Source: Alphaproteobacteria bacterium (GTDB lineage: Bacteria > Pseudomonadota > Alphaproteobacteria > GCA-2731375). From it: a DNA stretch of 64,000 bases. Position numbers and translations under genes: made by a program. The stretch is from NCBI GenBank assembly GCA_965232515.1, contig CBDDPY010000002.1:3456001-3520000 (forward strand). Reading direction: 5' to 3'. The notes beneath the pieces were generated by a model that ran no database searches, had not been told where the DNA came from, and saw only the letters and a program-made list of their open reading frames with translations. Shown one piece after another: positions 43,177 to 52,918 of this stretch (within the stretch, counting starts at the first letter, position 1; every line of letters begins with the position of its first letter).

Positions 43177-43251
<75 letters not shown>

Positions 43252-43875: not shown

Positions 43876-44454
43876 ATGGGTTTTGATTTTCGCGCAATTG
43901 AAGAAAATGCAGACCTAAGAAAGCTCAATCTGGCGTGCGGACAAGACGTCCGGCCCAGGGAAGCGAATTGGATAAATACAGACGCAATTTCTAGAAACGA
44001 CGTCGACAAGCTTGATATCTTCGACTTGCCATGGCCGTTCGAATCCGCCTCATTCGATTATGTTCTGGCAAAACACATACTTGAGCACGTGCCGCACAAC
44101 GTCGAGAAGTTCGGTTACGAGCGGAATTTCTTTTTGGAATTCATTGAAGAGATCTGGCGCGTCCTACGGCCCAATGGAATCCTGCACGTGGAGGTGCCAC
44201 GCGGCCTGTCATCTATGGCCAACGCGTTCGACCACAAGCGCATTATCACCCCGGAGACCTTCCATGCCTTCTTCGGCAGCGAATGGTCCTACCAGACGCA
44301 TTGTCAGTTTGCGCTGGTCGAGACAACAAATTCAGATACTTGGCGTTTCAAGGCGTTGCGTTTTCTGATGCGCAAAGGCTTCAGTGTCGATATCACGCAT
44401 TTGCGAACCGGTAATCAGCGCTTTTTTCTGCGGAAGGTGGTCGCGGAAAATTAG
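43876..44454 (+). CDS. class I SAM-dependent methyltransferase
   Basis: LNLACG, WPFESASFD, HILEH and WRVLRPNG motifs. Lower GC than neighbours. Confidence 0.85.
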   Translation: MGFDFRAIEENADLRKLNLACGQDVRPREANWINTDAISRNDVDKLDIFDLPWPFESASFDYVLAKHILEHVPHNVEKFGYERNFFLEFIEEIWRVLRPNGILHVEVPRGLSSMANAFDHKRIITPETFHAFFGSEWSYQTHCQFALVETTNSDTWRFKALRFLMRKGFSVDITHLRTGNQRFFLRKVVAEN

Positions 44455-44912
44455 CCTGCACTCACCGGCTGAACCTATTCACAAACGGCGCAATTCGGTC
44501 TGATTGCGGGACGCGCAACCTGTACAACGCGACCACCAGCGTCGAAGCGATCCGGCGGCTGTTCGACGTCACCAATTCGCCGAACCTACAAAAACTCGGC
44601 GACATCTATCCCGGTCGCCAGACGGTCGCGGTCTATGAGCCGGACGGCACTGCATCTTCCCTCCCTCTGATTTGTCGAGTGGAAAGGTCCCGAGGGTTCG
44701 AACACCAAACACGCCTTCAGCATGCCGTCCGTTGAGCGGTACCGCATCGCCGGGGGCTTGGGCGCTCCGGGGGACAATGGCCACAATCCGGGCTTGCCGC
44801 GCTCAACAATCGTAAGGCCGACTAACGAACTCGTGACCGAATAACGCCACCGCCTGCCAGCCTGCGCCAAAACGGCCCATAATCCGCAGCGTCGTCATTT
44901 GCCATCACTTCG

Positions 44913-46451
44913 CTAACTCCCCGCGATGCGGCGGTCGTGGCCCGACCAGTGGGGTTCGCGGAGGTCCTTGCGTTTGATTTTGCCGACCGGGCTTTTGGGG
45001 AGCGGGTCGGTGCGGAATTCGACGCGGCCGGGCTTTTTGTAGGAGCCGAGGCGGTCGGTGCAGAGGTCGATGATTTCCTGCTCGGATACCGGCGTCTCGC
45101 CGTCGGTGACGCAGACGGCCATGGGCGTTTCGCCCCAGCGCTCGTGCGGCACGCCGAAGACGGCGACCTCGACCACGGCGGGATGGTCGGTGATGACGTT
45201 CTCGAGCTCGGCGGGCCAGATGTTGTAGCCGCCGGAGATGATCATGTCGTCGGACCGGTCCAGCATGTAGAGATAGCCGTTCTCGTCCAGCATGCCGATG
45301 TCGCCGGTCAGCACCCAGCCGTCGACCAGGCGCTCGGCCGTGGCTTCGGGATTGTTCCAGAAACCGACCATCTGGCCGTCGGTTTTGGCGGCGATCTCGC
45401 CGGCCTGGCCGGGCGGCAGCGGCTTGTTGTCGTCGTCGCGGATCTCGAGCTGGGCGAACGGCAGCGCGAGACCACAGGAACGCAGCGGCGTCGAGCCGTC
45501 GACGTCGGCGAACCATTGCCGCGGGCCCATCATGGCGACCGGCAGCACCTCGGTCTGGCCATAGCCCTGATAGAGCACGTCGCCGAAGATCTCGCGGCCG
45601 GTGAGCGCGGTGTCGTCGGCGATCGGCGCCGCCGCGATCAGCAGGCATTTCAACTTCGACCAGTTGCGTTCGCGCACGCCCGGCAGATGGTTGAGGGCGT
45701 TCAGCATGGTCGGGACCAGGAACATATAGGCGATGCCCTCGCCCTCCATGACGTCCAGCGTCTCGACCGGATCGAAATGGTCGAGCATGACGTTGCAGCC
45801 GCCGCCGAGCCAGACCGGCACGAACAGATAGCCGGAGCCGTGGCTGATCGGCCCGAGATGCAGGCAGGGATCGCCCGGCTCGACCGGCGGATAGAGATAG
45901 AACCAGTCGCGCCCGGCGGCGAGCCAGGCGCGATGCGTATAGGCGACGCCCTTGGACTGGCCGGTGGTGCCGCCGGTATGGCGGATGATGTAATTGTCGT
46001 CGGGATCGATCTCGAGGTTGGGATCGATATCGGAATGGCCGGCGAGCCAGGCCTCGTAGCCGTCGTCGCGCACGACGATGTGCCGGAGATCGTCGAGCTC
46101 GGCATCGATGCCGTCGACCTCGTGCGCGTACTTGTCGGCGACGATCACCGCCCGGCAGCCGGTATGGCCGAGCATGTGCAGATGCGCCTCGCGGCCGTTG
46201 CGCGGATAGAGCGGCACGCGCACGACATTGGCGACGGCGGCGCCCAGAAAGATGTCAGCCGACTCGACGCAATTGTCTTCCAGCACGCCGACGCGATCGC
46301 CGGGCTTCAGGCCCATGGCGATCAGCGCGTTGCCCATGCGCACGCCGCGCGCCCAGGCCTCGGCGAAGGTCAGCCGCCGGCCGCCGGCGACGATCGCCTC
46401 CCGCGTGGGATAAAACTGCGCGGCGCGGCGCATCTGCGTGCGCACATCCAT
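44913..46451 (-). CDS. AMP-binding acyl-CoA synthetase
   Basis: HTGGTTGQSKG, GYGQTE, TGDIG, DMIISGG and PKSPVGKI motifs. Confidence 0.93.
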   Translation of the reverse strand: MDVRTQMRRAAQFYPTREAIVAGGRRLTFAEAWARGVRMGNALIAMGLKPGDRVGVLEDNCVESADIFLGAAVANVVRVPLYPRNGREAHLHMLGHTGCRAVIVADKYAHEVDGIDAELDDLRHIVVRDDGYEAWLAGHSDIDPNLEIDPDDNYIIRHTGGTTGQSKGVAYTHRAWLAAGRDWFYLYPPVEPGDPCLHLGPISHGSGYLFVPVWLGGGCNVMLDHFDPVETLDVMEGEGIAYMFLVPTMLNALNHLPGVRERNWSKLKCLLIAAAPIADDTALTGREIFGDVLYQGYGQTEVLPVAMMGPRQWFADVDGSTPLRSCGLALPFAQLEIRDDDNKPLPPGQAGEIAAKTDGQMVGFWNNPEATAERLVDGWVLTGDIGMLDENGYLYMLDRSDDMIISGGYNIWPAELENVITDHPAVVEVAVFGVPHERWGETPMAVCVTDGETPVSEQEIIDLCTDRLGSYKKPGRVEFRTDPLPKSPVGKIKRKDLREPHWSGHDRRIAGS

Positions 46452-46621
46452 GACATTCCTCCCAAAACAGACTGGTTCCCGGCGGCCGAGTTTAAGCGGA
46501 ATTCAATCGGCGCGCAGCACGGGACGGCGACGCGGCGATGGATTTGCAAACATTTCATCCGATGCACCCGACCGCGACCGGAAATTTCAACGCCACACCA
46601 AAAATAGAAAATATATTTGCA

Positions 46622-46650
46622 TTTACTACTTAATCGTGTGTCTCTAAAAG
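46622..46650 (+). promoter_or_regulatory. putative sigma70 promoter for the Y RNA/Ro60 locus
   Basis: TTTACT-17nt-TAAAAG, preceded by an AT-rich UP-like tract and ending about 10 nt before the first RNA module. Confidence 0.45.
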
Positions 46651-46660
46651 TTGCCGCCTT

Positions 46661-46747
46661 GGTCGGGCCGGGGTTGTTGGCTTATCGCTCCCCAAGCATC
46701 GTGCTTTCAAAGCACAACGTGGCGCCAGCGACGAAACACGCCCGACC
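46661..46747 (+). ncRNA. Y RNA-like module 1 (short)
   Basis: Closing stem GGTCGGGC/GCCCGACC, inner stem GTTGTTGG/CCAGCGAC, CTTATCG and ACACGCCC motifs. Lies upstream of Ro60. Confidence 0.7.
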
Positions 46748-46798
46748 GGGACAGGTTTTTGGAGTTCGGGGACGCGTCACGAGAGATGTCGTCCTGAA

Positions 46799-46926
46799 GT
46801 CCGGGCCGGAGAAGCAGGTTTATCGTTAACCTAATGGTCGGCGGTTCGATTCCGCCTCCGAACACTGGTTCGGATAGCTCAGTTGGCAGAGCACTAGGCT
46901 TACCTGGTTCACAAACACGCCCGGGC
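46799..46926 (+). ncRNA. yrlA: Y RNA, YrlA-type tRNA mimic
   Basis: Same closing scaffold enclosing, in permuted order, a T arm (GGCGG TTCGATT CCGCC), a looped acceptor stem (TCCGAAC/GTTCGGA) and a D arm (GCTC AGTTGGCA GAGC). Confidence 0.88.
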
Positions 46927-46969
46927 ACCGAAACCGCCTGAAGGCAGTTGGGTTGAGACGGAGGATGGC

Positions 46970-47086
46970 ATGACGAATACGCGATTTATCGACGGCTGGT
47001 CGAAAACGCCGTCGACGTACGTCGCCACGTCCGTTCGCGAGACCTGGCTGAATACGTCGGCCGGCAAACCGAATTATCGGTACTGA
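46970..47086 (+). CDS. candidate 38-aa micro-ORF within the Y RNA array
   Basis: GGAGGA RBS, then ATG; translates as MTNTRFIDGWSKTPSTYVATSVRETWLNTSAGKPNYRY with mostly G/C-ending codons. Confidence 0.35.
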   Translation: MTNTRFIDGWSKTPSTYVATSVRETWLNTSAGKPNYRY

Positions 47087-47190
47087 CGACCGGCCGCTGA
47101 TCCGCGCGACAGCACAACATCACCGCAGCAAACCGGCAGGCCCAGGTTGGGCCTGACTGATCGGTCGGCGTCCCGCGTCGACAGATCCAC

Positions 47191-47322
47191 GAGGTTTGGG
47201 CCGAAGGGTCAGGCTTATCGTAGCGACGAAAGGGCGGAAAGCCCGTCGCAGCGTTCCACCGAGGACGTGAGTCCCGTGAACGCGGGCGAAGACCGCCTGG
47301 TCCGCCGACACGCCCAAGCCTT
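47191..47322 (+). ncRNA. Y RNA-like module 3
   Basis: Closing stem GAGGTTTGGGC/GCCCAAGCCTT, GCCGAAGG (GNCGAAN0-1G Ro motif), GGCTTATCG and ACACGCCC. Confidence 0.75.
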
Positions 47323-47365
47323 GCCGCGGCGACAGTGCGACGCGCACGCAATCCAAACATGAACC

Positions 47366-47505
47366 GGCGGTCCGGGCCGGCAGATCAGGCTTATCGTAGC
47401 CATAAGGCAACTGGTGTTTGGCCAGTGTAGGCGCCCCACCGAGGGCGCGAACCCCCCGTGGATGCGGGCGATGCCCGCCTGATCGAACGACACGCCCGGA
47501 CCGCC
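47366..47505 (+). ncRNA. Y RNA-like module 4 (paralog of module 3)
   Basis: 12-bp closing stem GGCGGTCCGGGC/GCCCGGACCGCC, inner stem GATCAGGC/GCCTGATC, TTATCG and ACACGCCC. Confidence 0.75.
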
Positions 47506-47522
47506 CCGTTGGGGTAGAGACG

Positions 47523-49136
47523 ATGACTTTGCGAGATCTGTTTTCGCGGCGCCGGACGCCGCAGCACGAAGCTTTGCCCGGCCAGGTGGCGAACGCGGCC
47601 GGCGGGCATGCCTTCGCCGTCGATGACTGGGACCGGCTCGACCGGTTTCTGGTGCTCGGCAGCGAGGACGGCACGTTCTACATCGCGCCGCGCGCATTGA
47701 CGCGCGAGAACGCCGAAGCCGTCGAACGTTGCCTGGCCGCCGACGGCGCGCGGGTCGTTGCCCGCGTGGTCGAAATCTCCGATGCCGGCCGCACGCCAAA
47801 GAACGACCCGGCGCTGTTCGTGCTCGCCATGGCGACGGCCAGCGACGATCAGGCGACCCGACAGGCGGCGTTGGCCGCGCTGCCCCAGGTGGCGCGGACC
47901 GGCACGCACCTGTTCCACTTCGCCGAGTTCGTCGAGGGCTTTCGCGGCTGGGGCCGCGGCCTGCGGCGGGCGGTTGCAAGCTGGTACGGCGATCAGCCGA
48001 TCGACCGGCTGGCGCTGCAGATGGTCAAGTACCGGCAGCGGGACGGCTGGTCGCACCGCGACCTGTTGCGGCTCGCGCACCCGGTCACGGCCGATCCGCA
48101 GCGTCGCGCGCTGTTCGAATGGGCCCTGCGTGGCGGCGGCGCCCCCGCGTTGCCAATGTTGGCGCAGGGGTTCGATGCGGCGCAGGCACCGGGGGCCGAC
48201 GTGCCGGCGCTGATCCGGCGGCACGGCCTGCCGCGTGAGGCGTTGCCGACCGACGCGTTGAACGACGTCGCGGTCTGGGCGGCGCTGCTGGAACGGATGC
48301 CGATGACGGCGACGATCCGCAGCCTCGCCAAGATGTCGGCGGTCGGTCTGCTGCGGCCGATGAGCGAGGCGGCCGCCCAGGTCGCGACGCGGCTGGGCGA
48401 CGGCGAAGCGCTGCGCAAGGCGCGGGTGCATCCGCTGGCGCTGCTGGTGGCGCAGTCCGTCTACGCGCAGGGCCGTGGCTTGCGGGGCAAGCTGGAATGG
48501 GAGCCGGTCGCGGAGGTGATCGACGCGCTGGACGCCGCATTCTACCGGGCCTTCGCCAACGTCGAGCCGACCGGCAAGCGGCTGCTGCTGGCGCTCGACG
48601 TGTCCGGCAGCATGACCTGGGGCCAGGTCGCGGGCTCGCCGCTGACGCCGCGTGAGGCCGCCGCCGCCATGGTGCTGGTCACCGCGGCGACGGAGCGCCA
48701 CGTGCGCACCGTCGGCTTCTCGTCGGCCGGCCGGCTGCAGTCGCGGGGCATGTTCGGTGGCAGCCGCGCCGACCACGGCCTGGTGTCGTTGCCGATCTCG
48801 CCGGGACAGCGGTTGGCGGACGTTCTGCGGATCACCGCCGATCTGCCGTTCGGTGGCACCGACTGTGCCCTGCCGATGCTGTACGCATTGGATCGGGGAC
48901 TCGAGGTCGACGCGTTCGTGGTCTACACGGACTCGGAGACCTGGGCCGGGAAGATCCACCCGGTGCAGGCCTTGCGCGACTACCGGCGCAAGACCGGTAT
49001 CGCGGCAAAGCTGGTGGTGGTCGGCATGGTGTCGAACGGCTTTTCGATCGCCGATCCGGACGATGCCGGCATGCTGGACGTGGTCGGCTTCGACGCCGCC
49101 GCGCCAGCCGTCGTCGCCGACTTCATCCGGCGTTAG
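47523..49136 (+). CDS. rsr: Ro60 / Rsr TROVE-vWA RNA-binding protein
   Basis: QVANAAGG, RLDRFLVLGSEDGTFY, RTGTHLFHF, GWGRGLRRA, KYRQRDGWSHRDLLRL, MIDAS DVSGSM, GGTDCALPM and YTDSET; 537 aa. Confidence 0.96.
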   Translation: MTLRDLFSRRRTPQHEALPGQVANAAGGHAFAVDDWDRLDRFLVLGSEDGTFYIAPRALTRENAEAVERCLAADGARVVARVVEISDAGRTPKNDPALFVLAMATASDDQATRQAALAALPQVARTGTHLFHFAEFVEGFRGWGRGLRRAVASWYGDQPIDRLALQMVKYRQRDGWSHRDLLRLAHPVTADPQRRALFEWALRGGGAPALPMLAQGFDAAQAPGADVPALIRRHGLPREALPTDALNDVAVWAALLERMPMTATIRSLAKMSAVGLLRPMSEAAAQVATRLGDGEALRKARVHPLALLVAQSVYAQGRGLRGKLEWEPVAEVIDALDAAFYRAFANVEPTGKRLLLALDVSGSMTWGQVAGSPLTPREAAAAMVLVTAATERHVRTVGFSSAGRLQSRGMFGGSRADHGLVSLPISPGQRLADVLRITADLPFGGTDCALPMLYALDRGLEVDAFVVYTDSETWAGKIHPVQALRDYRRKTGIAAKLVVVGMVSNGFSIADPDDAGMLDVVGFDAAAPAVVADFIRR

Positions 49137-49200
49137 GACGGTGTGACTGTCCGCCGCCCGTGGTGTTCGACAACCCCGTCGCGCACCACGGGCGGCGGCG

Positions 49201-50733
49201 TCAGCCTTCGCTGCGGTTCCACGCGCCGGTGAAGCCGAGCGGGCCGCCCTCGGCGGTGACGCCGATGGCTTCGTGCGGCGGGCGGCAGACGACGTTCTTG
49301 CCCTTCCACGGATTGGCCCAGATCGCCACGCCCTTCGGCTTGCCGGCTTGATCGACGCGCTTGTTGACGACGTGCAGGCCGCGGATGGTGATCCGGCCCA
49401 TGGCGATGTCGGAGACATCCGGATTGGTCTGGGCCCGACGCGTCATCCAGGCGCAGAGATTGGCCTCGCCGTAGTTTTTGTCGGTGCGCGGCGAGCCGTC
49501 CTTCAGGTTCGCCTTGTCCGTACCGAAGCCGATGGCCAGCCATTGCGGGCCGTTCGGCTTCACGCACCTGACCTCGCGGATCACGGTGGCGCCGCCCTGG
49601 GGCACCTCGATGCAGGCGCCGGCGGACGCCTCGTAGACGCCGCCCTGGAAGTAGTTCACGGCGCAACGGCTCTTGGCGCCATGCGCCATGACGTTGTTGA
49701 CCGAGGTGACGTCGACCATCACCAGCATCGGGCAGAACCGCTTGCGGCGCCAATCGCCCGAGGCATAGATGCCGTGCGCGCCGTTGGAGTTGGCGCAACC
49801 GTCGAGCCGCGTGTTGAACAGCATCACCCAGCGCCCGGTCGTGCGCACGCAATTGTCCATGCCCTTGATGGTCATGTCGATCAGCACCAGCCGCGAGTCC
49901 CGCCGGCTGGTGGCGCCGATGCCAGCGGTGTATTTGCCGTAAGCCTTGCCGGCCACCGTGAAGCCTTCCATGGTCATGATGCGGTCGGCGTTGTGGCTCA
50001 GACAAAAGCTGCCGCCGCCGGGCCAGCCGTCGCGACAATCGATGACGGTCGGCCGCGTCTTGTCCTGCGCCCGCAGGCGCGACGCATTACGGGCGAACGT
50101 CTCGGTCGCGATCTTGCCGTTGGCGTTCTGATGCTGGCCGATGACGCGGATCGAATGGGTGCCGGGCAGGATCGCGATGCCGCCGTCCTTGGTCCGCCAG
50201 CTTCGCCACTGCCGGTCCGCCTGCAGGATCGAACCGTTGACACCGCGCATGCCGGCATACTGCGGATTCGACCTCAGATCGGCCACACAGGCCCAGGGCT
50301 TGCCGCAATCGACCGTATCGGGGCCGGGACGGCCGAGCCGCAAATACGGTTTCACGAGCGCGAGCACCGTCCGCTCGTTCTCGGTGCCGGCGATGGGCGG
50401 CCCGGCATCGACCACCACCGGCGCGGCGCGGCCGGTCACCACGGCCGGCCCCGGCGGGGCCGGTTTTTCAGCCTTCGGCGGCTCAGCCGCGGGTGGCGCC
50501 GCGGGTGCGTCGCGCTCAGCGGACGCGGCCGGTTGCTCGACCGGCACCGGCGTCAGCAGGAATTCTCCCTCGAGGCGATAGCGTTTGCCATCGATGGTGA
50601 CCTCGAGCTGAGACTGCGCCACCGCGCCCTGCCAACCAAGCGCCAGCAGCAGCAAGCCGCCAATGCCGGCCCAACGCGCGCGCCGCCAGACAAGCGAAAG
50701 ACTGGCAAGAAATATCATTGAACACCGTGTCAT
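49201..50733 (-). CDS. exported protein with probable right-handed beta-helix
   Basis: N-terminal hydrophobic segment, Pro/Ala linker, and HGIY, HGAKSR and IEVPQGG motifs. Start uncertain. Confidence 0.6.
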   Translation of the reverse strand: MTRCSMIFLASLSLVWRRARWAGIGGLLLLALGWQGAVAQSQLEVTIDGKRYRLEGEFLLTPVPVEQPAASAERDAPAAPPAAEPPKAEKPAPPGPAVVTGRAAPVVVDAGPPIAGTENERTVLALVKPYLRLGRPGPDTVDCGKPWACVADLRSNPQYAGMRGVNGSILQADRQWRSWRTKDGGIAILPGTHSIRVIGQHQNANGKIATETFARNASRLRAQDKTRPTVIDCRDGWPGGGSFCLSHNADRIMTMEGFTVAGKAYGKYTAGIGATSRRDSRLVLIDMTIKGMDNCVRTTGRWVMLFNTRLDGCANSNGAHGIYASGDWRRKRFCPMLVMVDVTSVNNVMAHGAKSRCAVNYFQGGVYEASAGACIEVPQGGATVIREVRCVKPNGPQWLAIGFGTDKANLKDGSPRTDKNYGEANLCAWMTRRAQTNPDVSDIAMGRITIRGLHVVNKRVDQAGKPKGVAIWANPWKGKNVVCRPPHEAIGVTAEGGPLGFTGAWNRSEG

Positions 50734-51137
50734 GGTCGCGCCGACGGTCTCTTTCGACCTTTCAGGCCGGACCGTCGTGTTGCCAGACAGTATAACCGGA
50801 ACCGCGCCGATCGCGACCTCAGCGGATATGACTGGATGTGGGAAGCGGCGCGGCTGCAACAAGTTTTGTTTGGTATTTTATATAAATACAAATCGTCTCT
50901 TTAATAAAAATTCAATTTTTCTTAAATGATCTCTAATTTCACAAGTATTCTTGCATCAAAATCAAACAATCACGGCTCAAAGCGGGACGTTTTTCTGACA
51001 CAAATTGTACCATCTCGTATCGGCAATGTCCGGAAATCCCAGGATTCCGGGGTTCGGCCGTTTGGCCCGCCACCTGCAATGATAGCGGTTGGGAGCCGCA
51101 CGGGTGCGGCGTTCGGTTAACGGAGGGCAGCAGAGCC

Positions 51138-51515
51138 ATGCAGGCACAGAACCGCCAAATTCTCGACTATTTCGGTTTCCTCCGGACGCTGAACCACGTC
51201 GACCCCGTTGCCGGCGACCGCCTGGCCGCGCAGCTCGACGACGATCTGTGCTACGAGTTCAGCAGCGCCCAGCACGAAGTCGATGGCGCCCTGGAAATCC
51301 ATACGACGGAATCGGTCAGGACCGCGGCAGATACGGCGCCGCAGATCAGCGTGCACCGGATTTTGCAGGTCGAACGGGGCCGGAACTGCCGGATCGATCG
51401 GGAAAAGATCGTCATCGACGGCTATTTCGACGACATCGACCGCCTGGGCTCGTCGCTGTTCACCTTCCTGACGGAACACGGGTTCGACCGGGTCGCGGGC
51501 GACGCGACCGCTTAG
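51138..51515 (+). CDS. hypothetical protein
   Basis: GGAGG RBS and genome-typical codon usage. No recognised motif. Confidence 0.65.
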   Translation: MQAQNRQILDYFGFLRTLNHVDPVAGDRLAAQLDDDLCYEFSSAQHEVDGALEIHTTESVRTAADTAPQISVHRILQVERGRNCRIDREKIVIDGYFDDIDRLGSSLFTFLTEHGFDRVAGDATA

Positions 51516-51691
51516 GCCGAACCGCTCAATCGCGGCCGGCGAGGCGGTCGGCCGCGTTCGTTTGCTAAACCAACCGTAAATCCCGTTTTACGGTTTTTTA
51601 TTCGTTCTCGCGCATACTTCCGACGAATTCGGAACCGGCGCATTCGTTCGCCCAGTATTCAAATTTGAGCCGATAGTAAAAGAGGCGACAG

Positions 51692-52918
51692 ATGCAAGCC
51701 ACCGCGCGCGGCGCCCTGCCAGCACCGAGCAATCCCGACGACTCGCAAGATCACGACGTTGCCCAGGCGCCGGAAGGCTCCGACATCTCAGCCATTGGCG
51801 CGCTGTCGGCGCAAGACGGTGAGAGCGAGATCGGCCCCGGCCAATATGTCTTTCTGATGGCGCTGGTTATCGTCGGCGTGCTGACGGGCGTCGCCTTCGC
51901 CAATCACAACCTCACCCCCCTGATCTATCAGGAGCCGGCGCAGGCCGAGGTCGCCCAGACCCTCCATGGCGGCCAGAATTACGCGCTCTACGACCTGAAC
52001 TTCGAGATCCGCGGCGTCCGCCGGCATCAGATCCGGCTGATGACCAAAACGCCCGAGTTGATCATCCTGGGCGCCAGTCACTGGCAGGAAGCGCATGCCG
52101 GCCTGGTGCCGGGCGTGGACTTCTTCAACGCCCATGTGCACCGGGATTACTACGACGATCCCATCGGCATGGTCGGCCACCTGCTCGACTACAACCGCCT
52201 GCCGAAGACTCTTGTGATCAGCGTGCGCGACGCCACCTTCACGCCGGTCGCGGAGCGGACCGACTATCTCTGGCTGGGCGGCATCCCGTCCTTCCGGGCC
52301 ATGGAACCCCGCCTCGGCCTGCCGAAACGGCCGTGGTACGAGGACTACCATCTGCAGCCGGTGCTGGACCTGTTCTCCCTGCGATTGGCCATCACCGGCG
52401 GCTTGCGCGAGCTGCGCGCGGAGAACCGGCCCGGCCCGACGGATGCCGATTTCGCCGAGGACCTGGACATCTTCATGGCCGACGGCTCGATCCGCTGGTC
52501 GGGCGAGCACCTCGCCGCCTTCACGCCTGAATATGTCCGCGACCGGGCGCTGGAAATGGCCCAGCACGTCCGCCGGCATCCGCCACGGATCAACGCCGAC
52601 ACGGTCGACGCCTTCCGCCGCATGCTGGCGCTGCTGCAGAACCACGACGTCGATGTTGTGCTGGCCCATCCGCCGTTCAATCCGCAGTTCCACGACGCCG
52701 TCGCCGGCAGCGACTATGCCGATCACCTGAACGCCGTCGAGGCCCTGACCCGGGATCTCGCCGCGCAGTACGGCGCCCGCACCGCCGGCAGCTTCGATCC
52801 CGCCCGGGTCGGCTGCACGGCCGACATGTATATCGATTCCGAGCACAGCCGGCCGGTCTGCCTGCAGAAACTGCTGACGCAGGTCGTGTCCGGCCGCTCA
52901 CAGGCGCCGTCGCTTTAG
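51692..52918 (+). CDS. membrane-anchored SGNH/DltD-like protein
   Basis: One TM helix, LIILGASH (block I Ser) and C-terminal DSEH (DxxH). Adjacent to an MBOAT. Confidence 0.7.
   Translation: MQATARGALPAPSNPDDSQDHDVAQAPEGSDISAIGALSAQDGESEIGPGQYVFLMALVIVGVLTGVAFANHNLTPLIYQEPAQAEVAQTLHGGQNYALYDLNFEIRGVRRHQIRLMTKTPELIILGASHWQEAHAGLVPGVDFFNAHVHRDYYDDPIGMVGHLLDYNRLPKTLVISVRDATFTPVAERTDYLWLGGIPSFRAMEPRLGLPKRPWYEDYHLQPVLDLFSLRLAITGGLRELRAENRPGPTDADFAEDLDIFMADGSIRWSGEHLAAFTPEYVRDRALEMAQHVRRHPPRINADTVDAFRRMLALLQNHDVDVVLAHPPFNPQFHDAVAGSDYADHLNAVEALTRDLAAQYGARTAGSFDPARVGCTADMYIDSEHSRPVCLQKLLTQVVSGRSQAPSL

Follow-up and report, generated by a model that had tools for sequence, protein, structure and literature searches.

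Four putative Y RNA genes with a shared handle and differing inner domains upstream of an alphaproteobacterial Ro60 gene

Layout of the array 5′ of Ro60

A 64,000-nt stretch of an alphaproteobacterial genome (the window, i.e. the whole of the DNA that was analysed) carries a gene for the ring protein Ro60/Rsr and, directly 5′ of it, a row of four structured units, U1 to U4, which very probably are genes for Y RNAs, the RNA partners of Ro60. Y RNAs are thought to set the action of Ro60, either as gates to its cavity or as tethers that link it to enzymes such as PNPase, and a handful of bacterial Y RNAs have been studied so far. An initial annotation of the window had proposed at least four modular units, in which a common scaffold encloses a different inner (cargo) domain each time. 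The features of the locus are listed below; bit scores are those of a covariance model, R1, described in the next section, and L011 is the Ro60 locus of a sister species of the same genus.

46590..46657, + strand: A+T-rich block directly 5′ of U1, near-identical in L011
46658..46750, + strand: predicted Y RNA unit 1 (U1), hairpin type, R1 37.0 bits
46799..46926, + strand: predicted Y RNA unit 2 (U2), putative YrlA-type permuted tRNA mimic, R1 36.8 bits
46927..47189, + strand: U2–U3 spacer, 263–264 nt, not Y RNA by model R1
47190..47323, + strand: predicted Y RNA unit 3 (U3), three-hairpin cargo, R1 30.5 bits with filters off
47366..47505, + strand: predicted Y RNA unit 4 (U4), paralogue of U3, R1 29.2 bits
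47523..49136, + strand: Ro60/Rsr gene, 537 aa, Pfam and PDB matches

The open reading frame (ORF) at 47523–49136 is Ro60, as seen from matches to the Pfam domains TROVE (9.6e-45) and vWA_Ro60 (9.3e-62) and to human RO60 (8e-121), Deinococcus radiodurans Rsr (2e-119) and Xenopus Ro (7e-115) in the PDB. It is the sole TROVE gene of the 7.39 Mb genome.

The units lie 17–865 nt 5′ of the Ro60 start codon at 47523, the 3′ end of U4 being 17 nt from it, and follow a common plan: outer stem-GGGCCG-N11-UUAUCG-cargo-inner stem′-ACACGCCC-outer stem′. Inner stem′ is the complement of the bases preceding UUAUC, and between it and the 3′ outer strand of each unit there is a bulge ending in ACAC, followed by GCCC. 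Unit limits were set by a pairing script, which gave lengths of 93 (U1), 128 (U2), 134 (U3) and 140 nt (U4), with outer stems of 8–12 bp and inner stems of 5–9 bp. All four of the units first annotated are present, within a few bases of their earlier coordinates, and each one folds better than its own shuffled sequences, with z = −2.7 (U1), −3.4 (U2), −3.9 (U3) and −5.5 (U4).

The pattern GGGCCG-N11-TTATCG occurs in the window exclusively at 46665, 46803, 47198 and 47374, all on the + strand; 0.19 occurrences would be expected and none of 100 shuffles reached four. ACACGCCC also occurs four times, each at the matching 3′ position of a unit. As its count is by itself within chance (3.24 expected), it is the combination of the two that is unique.

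The handle and its linkage to Ro60

A comparison set of 139 Ro60 loci (codes L###) was assembled from species genomes (59 loci) and metagenomes (80 loci). The seed alignment, A4, contained 20 short-cargo units of other lineages (Verrucomicrobiota, Armatimonadota, Chloroflexota, Acidobacteriota and other Alphaproteobacteria), with the window and the sister species left out, and R1 was built from it; RNAalifold on an earlier MAFFT alignment, A2, had given the outer stem only, the 3′ strands being misaligned. In A4, 88.7% of the stem cells are paired, compared with 36–47% when the partners are slid, and 66 cells are doubly changed, compared with 23.6 ± 4 after shuffling.

The default filters of R1 overlook U3, which has a long cargo, and a run with the filters off covered 46000–49500. 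This run gave the four scores listed above, with the next best at 9.3 bits, so that by this model ‘at least four’ units become exactly four. In an alignment that was fitted to R1, and hence leans towards it, 66 of the 68 stem cells of the window units are standard pairs (97.1%, against 24–46% slid) and 8 of 17 pairs are altered on both sides between the paralogues. The stems do, then, differ between copies and yet stay paired, as had been proposed.

Both strands of the window and the 139 loci, 786 kb in all, were searched with R1. The window and the genome loci gave 99 matches, three of them in the window and three in L011, and the metagenome loci gave 71; 99/99 and 71/71, and thus 170/170, lie on the Ro60 strand. 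Besides the six in the window and L011 there are 164, which come from at least eight phyla. When the 99 matches were aligned, again by fitting to R1 and with the same leaning, 93.9% of cells were paired against 34–45% slid, with 406 double changes against 113 ± 9. Matches were found in 38 of the 59 genome loci and 36 of the 80 metagenome loci, and many of the loci that have none include little upstream sequence. Most matches are upstream of Ro60, the downstream ones being in L042/L133, L091/L092, L112 and L152. The enterobacterial locus L031 gave no R1 match; the mycobacteriophage ScottMcG gave two (23.8 and 23.5 bits), upstream of its Ro gene.

Within the 7.4 Mb genome that contains the window, R1 matches with E ≤ 1 were confined to the Ro60 locus among the 150 of 2091 first-look candidates that were scored. 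The short 5′ pattern elsewhere in this genome is at background (26 against 18 in the control), and blastn of the cargo domains on it returned self matches only. Within this scope, the motif is not dispersed genome-wide.

The architecture that the units share, which covaries and is linked to Ro60 in strand and in place, also resembles that of described Y RNAs. In the handle the outer stem terminates with GGGC/GCCC, the 3′ bulge has ACAC as its last bases, the inner stem is of about 9 bp and UUAUC stands at the loop entry. The R1 consensus of the handle is uugcgCGGGCCGGAGcgggUGgGUUAUC...CcCAcccgCaaCAACUUGCCCG and that of Rfam RF01656, the nematode stem-bulge RNA (sbRNA), is UCGGUCCGGaGucgaUGGGUUAUC...CCCAucgaCACCAACUUGACCG; the two agree in GG(G/U)CCGGAG, in UGGGUUAUC at the end of the upper stem, in CCCA and in CAACUUG(C/A)CC. 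At ten related loci five units pass the RF01656 cut-off of 38 bits, at 39.6–43.1 bits (two of these five passed in a separate search too), and nine further units reach 30.9–37.5 bits. The other families scored lower against their cut-offs at these loci: YrlA (RF02553) had ten matches of 29.7–43.6 bits and none at its cut-off of 69, the Deinococcus Y RNA family had one of 44.3 bits (cut-off 80) and vertebrate Y_RNA had two at 29 bits (cut-off 38). The vertebrate family (RF00019) has no match in the array itself at E ≤ 5. Across the 19 + 10 related loci, too, the YrlA-like units all stay short of the YrlA cut-off. Since the four window units fall below it as well, standard annotation overlooks such Y RNAs.

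In the accessible text of PMC4201824 the 5′-strand motif for Ro60 is given as GNCGAAN0-1G in bacteria and GGUCCGA in vertebrates. U3, with GCCGAAG, is an exact fit. The commonest form at other Ro60 loci is GGGCCGGAG, found in 50 of the 99 aligned units, and the sbRNA consensus has CCGGaG. At the loop entry, UUA(U/C)C is kept in 96–99 of the 99 bacterial units beside Ro60, and this suggests that UUAUC has a role in the Ro60 particle itself. According to the accessible part of PMC4726728, UUAUC is a motif common to sbRNAs and vertebrate Y RNAs and is required for the DNA-replication activity of sbRNAs; there, sbRNAs are homologues of vertebrate Y RNAs, and bacterial Y RNAs are stated to be non-homologous with the vertebrate clades. 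A word search of PMC4201824, in its accessible text, found neither UUAUC nor sbRNA. Judged by its sequence, the handle of the window units would belong to the ‘metazoan-like’ type, as described for D. radiodurans, and not to the enterobacterial YrlA type. An sbRNA-like handle with UUAUC appears, moreover, to be the common bacterial form, and this is a new point reached from the present locus.

Rows of such units are also common. In many phyla, a search with the 5′ motif placed it before Ro60 and on the Ro60 strand, with up to eight copies per locus. A count per source used 171 R1 matches, 148 of them distinct, U3 having been added by hand from the filters-off run: of the 75 sources with a match, 26 have one unit, 22 have two, 14 have three, seven have four, five have five and one has six, so that 13 of 75 have at least four. 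These counts are too low, because the default filters overlook long-cargo units and many contigs are short. In PMC4201824, as far as its text is accessible, Salmonella Typhimurium, Mycobacterium smegmatis and D. radiodurans are each credited with ‘at least two’ Y RNAs, Table S1 gives one YrlA per Ro60 gene, and D. radiodurans has five small RNAs and a tRNA upstream of rsr on one precursor. The earlier statement that well-studied loci have about two Y RNAs therefore agrees with the literature but not with the five small RNAs of D. radiodurans, and the rarity that it implied for a row of four is contradicted by rows of two to six units at the Ro60 loci of many phyla. No description of bacterial arrays or of UUAUC was found in the accessible literature, which covers part of the Ro60 reviews. 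The array looks, then, to be no exception: it is a common state that the accessible literature has left uncatalogued, and its copy number is ordinary. The value of the locus lies in the U3/U4 cargo and in the likeness of its handle to sbRNA.

Cargo domains of the four units

The three kinds of cargo that had been claimed were all recovered: a hairpin in U1, a permuted tRNA mimic in U2 and two multi-hairpin paralogues in U3 and U4. In U1 the outer stem, GGGC/GCCC included, is 11 bp long and the inner stem 9 bp; the 37-nt cargo contains a single small hairpin, and blastn matches to this cargo were found in the sister genome only.

The 77-nt cargo of U2 is built of three tRNA-like elements in permuted order, namely a T arm (GGCGG-UUCGAUU-CCGCC), a closed acceptor-like stem of seven pairs (UCCGAAC-ACUG-GUUCGGA) and a D arm (UAGCUCAGUUGGCAGAGC). 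It matches the Rfam model of YrlA with 35.2 bits over 46832–46896 (model positions 23–85; E 9e-6 in a 1 kb search; cut-off 69). U1, U3 and U4 had no YrlA match, ARAGORN predicted no tRNA genes in 44000–52000 and the Rfam tRNA model had no match in the array. U2 is thus read from its arms as a YrlA-type permuted tRNA mimic on a different handle. In L011 the T and D loops of U2 are much changed, while the remainder of that locus is about 94% identical to the window; L011 having a variant T loop and the window unit (46799–46926) a canonical one, the tRNA-like loop is not always kept.

Other tRNA-related variants were noticed at these Ro60 loci. In the YrlA-like units L011:2277-2403, L020:1644-1772, L021:147-276 and L069:2472-2603 the T loop reads GGUG(A/C)AA(G/A)UCC instead of GGUUCGAAUCC. 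In other phyla some tRNA-like genes are in effect tRNA–Y RNA chimeras: their acceptor stem is normal, the D and T arms and an encoded CCA are present, and a Y RNA handle is added as an extra permuted arm (L034:2745-2885); here the 3′ strand, ...CUUUGCCCGC, comes first, then a loop, then GCGGGCCG...GGUUAUC. Further tRNA-model matches of about 100–200 nt were seen at L036:2255-2388, L044:2101-2237 and 2323-2454, L047:1004-1167 and 1969-2103, L053:997-1099 and 1185-1305, and L062:1550-1657. Large arrays of tRNA genes directly precede the row of Y RNAs and Ro60, and share their strand, at L012:171-2154, L036:84-2173, L044:74-1534, L047:51-1676 and L029:2182-4045, and such arrays lie on both sides of Ro60 in L039 and L040; ARAGORN counts 15–22 tRNA genes in the L044 and L036 arrays. 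The loci with tRNA arrays are from metagenome-assembled genomes of Gaiellaceae, Anaerolineae, Verrucomicrobiota and Acidobacteriota. Perhaps these are tRNA–Y RNA–Ro60 islands of mobile or phage origin.

The cargo of U3 (75 nt) is composed of a long hairpin, P1, a second hairpin, P2, with the loop CACCGA, and a third, P3 (CCCGU-N4-GCGGG). That of U4 (81 nt) has the same P2, P3 and tail and differs in its 5′ part. P2 has six pairs; C-G takes the place of U-A and of U-G between paralogues and between species, and the pairing holds. In a consensus fold that includes the L011 copies, the junction of U3/U4 is closed by a three-pair helix in which UCG of UUAUCG pairs with CGA. Identity to the sister species is 98% for the U4 cargo and about 90% for that of U3.

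This cargo had no Rfam match at E ≤ 5, and blastn over all loci found it in L011/L072 only. A second covariance model, R2, was built from four sequences (the two window cargoes and the L011 copies). Over the window and 99 loci R2 returned its four source sequences only, at 67–68 bits (U3 at 68.2, a self match). The next match, at L136 447-503 with 19.9 bits, was rejected, as it falls inside a small coding ORF, and in the genome of the window the next best had 25 bits (E about 0.08). The expectation that some of the units belong to an undescribed class is therefore upheld for the U3/U4 domain, which matches no Rfam family and no unit at the 139 other Ro60 loci beyond the same genus; the cargo is, on the sequences compared, what appears to be new here, and makes the domain a candidate for binding a partner not yet known. 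By rough motif classes, the 148 distinct units divide into 80 with short cargo, 41 with a T-loop and/or D-arm and 27 with a longer cargo that has neither. Among these 27 are non-tRNA types that recur in other Alphaproteobacteria, so that non-tRNA cargo is not rare, the U3/U4 type being so far limited to one genus.

Expression, alternative readings and known systems

Evidence for RNA comes from assembled contigs of two RNA-seq libraries (X4 and X15) of one study, which are 93–97% identical to the window stretch. X4 covers 46560–47698 entirely, in three pieces. X15 has one 242-nt contig, 46679–46921, that spans U1–U2 with a depth of 22, and has none of rsr. In this contig all 14 substitutions and one indel fall in the 48-nt U1–U2 spacer and none in the units, and this confinement shows purifying selection on the units. 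The contigs are consistent with transcription of the units in the relative.

Some of these data weigh against the reading of the units as Y RNA genes. The contigs come from a relative of 93–97% similarity, show neither strand nor ends and may contain DNA. None of the four units reaches a curated Rfam cut-off, U2 having 35.2 bits on YrlA and U1 25.0 on RF01656 against 69 and 38. At the first A of the published GNCGAA three of the units have G (GCCGGGG in U1, GCCGGAG in U2, GCCGGCA in U4). One P3 pair is broken in the L011 copy of U3, and the U3/U4 cargo is supported by two species of one genus only. No sigma-70-like promoter was found at the array, and the genome-wide R1 search scored 150 of 2091 first-look candidates. 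Ro60 binding, discrete RNA ends and the transcribed strand are predictions. Nevertheless, it remains highly likely, from sequence comparison, that the four units are Y RNA genes. As for the Rfam families, the comparison found U2 to be in part YrlA-like and U1 to be a weak sbRNA match, and not all of the modules match described families.

The most serious alternative is that the four structures are not free RNAs: they would belong to an extended 5′ leader of the rsr mRNA and bind Ro60, which would in this way feed back on the stability or translation of its own message. All the units are on the rsr strand and upstream of it, no terminator-like + strand site lies between them, and U4 ends 17 nt before the start codon; the RNA-library contigs of the relative also cross unit borders and reach into rsr, although contigs do not prove single transcripts. 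In studied species, however, upstream Y RNAs arise by processing of a precursor and build up as free RNAs (PMC4201824, accessible text), the restriction of X15 to U1–U2, at depth 22 and with none of rsr, fits a stable product, and at L042/L133, L091/L092, L112 and L152 the units are downstream of Ro60. A leader function is accordingly improbable, and it would in any case be compatible with free Y RNAs.

It is less probable still that only some of the units work, U3/U4, or U1, being decaying duplicates that keep the handle by recent ancestry. The U3/U4 cargo is found in a single genus, the two are paralogues, and one of them has the broken P3 pair in L011; but the high cargo identity to the sister species (98% and about 90%), the pairing of P2 preserved across its U-A/C-G and U-G/C-G exchanges, handles that differ between U3 and U4 at several pairs and are still paired, and the strongest fold z values of the four (−3.9 and −5.5) all speak for maintenance. 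A mobile or repetitive extragenic palindromic (REP)-like repeat, or tRNA-derived debris, lying beside Ro60 by chance would agree with repeated stem-bearing units, with the tRNA-like arms of U2 and with a tRNA gene 3.4 kb upstream at 43177–43248. The lack of any other copy found in the 7.4 Mb genome, with the 150 of 2091 candidates scored, the 170/170 R1 matches that share the Ro60 strand at Ro60 loci and the lack of an ARAGORN tRNA in 44000–52000 refute this idea for practical purposes.

The upstream neighbour of the locus is a divergent gene for an AMP-binding enzyme. As rtcB is about 790 kb from the array, the locus is unlike the Salmonella-type rsr-rtcBA operon. Among 32 other genomes of the family Ro60 was found in one, which is of the same genus, a patchiness that fits an accessory and possibly transferred locus; a metagenome scan for closer Ro60 relatives gave no locus above about 70% identity. 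Block 46590–46657 is near-identical to L011, with intergenic DNA farther upstream much more diverged, and is likely to be the promoter or regulatory region of the array; inspection by eye, with no tool, showed no sigma-54 or EcfG-type site.

The U2–U3 spacer folds at −113.4 kcal/mol (z = −3.6 against shuffles) and is about 90% identical to L011. A fifth unit in this gap (46927–47190) was rejected, R1 giving at most 4.8 bits there with the filters off. A 41-codon ORF at 46961–47086, preceded by GGAGGA, stays open in L011; by manual count 11 of its 13 differences from L011 change a residue, so that no protein-level constraint was seen and the idea of a conserved peptide was rejected. A relic of a duplicated rsr 5′ end was also rejected, with a local alignment score of 20 against 20.0 ± 2.7 for shuffled sequences. 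The segment after U2 (46940–46965) resembles that after U4 (47506–47527) in GUUGGG(U/G)U..GAGACG..AUGAC, and each runs on into a start codon, after U2 that of the small ORF and after U4 that of rsr; this could be a common ribosome-binding or processing context, or chance. An ORF of about 125 codons lies between the last Y RNA and Ro60 in the actinobacterial-looking metagenome loci L101:2116-2500 and L136:124-500. On the 3′ side of Ro60, a long inverted repeat (~49150–49205) immediately follows the stop codon, and the next 2.5 kb or so (49137–51690) have long overlapping ORFs on both strands, for instance 49201–50862 (−, 553 aa), which had no Pfam match.

We propose that 46658–47505 encodes four Y RNAs, partners of Ro60, which are probably co-transcribed with rsr from one promoter 5′ of U1 and probably cut out of a common precursor. 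In D. radiodurans and M. smegmatis, a single precursor gives rise by cleavage to the Y RNAs upstream of rsr (PMC4201824, accessible text). The paired ends would form the handle, the predicted docking site for Ro60, and as the cargo varies by unit a single Ro60 could form several different particles. The part presented would be a small hairpin in U1, as in the hairpin-type second Y RNAs of the species studied, a permuted tRNA look-alike in U2 and, in U3/U4, a lineage-specific three-hairpin junction that presumably binds another partner; tethering or gating by the cargo domains is what we infer from this arrangement. The modular reading of the initial annotation, a shared Ro60-type handle with different inner domains, is borne out and coincides with the standing model of the field, in which a Ro60-binding stem carries an effector module (bioRxiv 10.1101/312249, accessible part).

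A more far-reaching combination of claims is possible but rather doubtful: that the whole metazoan-type handle (Ro60 helix, upper stem and UUAUC) is ancient in the Ro60 particle across bacterial phyla, and that U3/U4 is a new non-tRNA effector module recruiting a partner other than that of the YrlA type. On the first claim, the upper stem and UUAUC, a motif associated with DNA replication activity in nematodes and vertebrates, would serve Ro60 docking or particle architecture and not a role restricted to eukaryotes, and the Y RNAs of bacteria and animals would be homologous or would have been exchanged along with Ro60; on the second, this Ro60 would operate at least three kinds of particle from a single operon. 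The near-identity of the bacterial and sbRNA handle consensus bears on a shared ancestry of animal and bacterial Y RNAs and on the purpose of UUAUC, and an operon that combines four handles with three kinds of cargo in a small space is convenient for asking whether the cargo picks the partners.

One of the closest known systems is that of D. radiodurans, where, by the accessible text of PMC4201824, Yrn1/Yrn2 (with small RNAs a, b and d; RF01053) are arranged in a row that precedes rsr, shares its strand and is made as one precursor; they have a long terminal stem with a metazoan-like Ro60 site and comprise one tRNA-like RNA and one plain hairpin, as in the window. The cargo differs, RF01053 has no match in 46600–47560 at E ≤ 5, and the window array is without an internal tRNA gene. 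In Salmonella the Y RNAs are 3′ of rsr, in an rsr-yrlBA-rtcBA operon, whereas in the window they are 5′ of it, with rtcB far away. YrlA (RF02553; Salmonella Typhimurium and M. smegmatis; crystal structure 6cu1) has the same permuted T arm, acceptor-like stem and D arm as U2, whereas its terminal stem (model positions 1–22 and 86–114) does not align to U2. U1 can be likened, by description and not by sequence, to the hairpin-type second Y RNAs (YrlB of Salmonella and M. smegmatis, Yrn2 of D. radiodurans), having like them a long stem and a small apical part beside a tRNA-like Y RNA. Yrl1/Yrl2 of the Thermus phage phiLo are upstream of Ro60, as U1 is; the phage RNAs bind Ro60 in vitro (PMC12135203, accessible part). 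In the nematode sbRNA (RF01656) the handle consensus is nearly equal to the bacterial R1 handle, but its upper stem ends in UGGGUUAUC whereas those of the window end in GGC/GGU-UUAUCG, and in contrast to vertebrate Y RNAs and nematode sbRNAs the window genes are bacterial and stand beside a bacterial Ro60.

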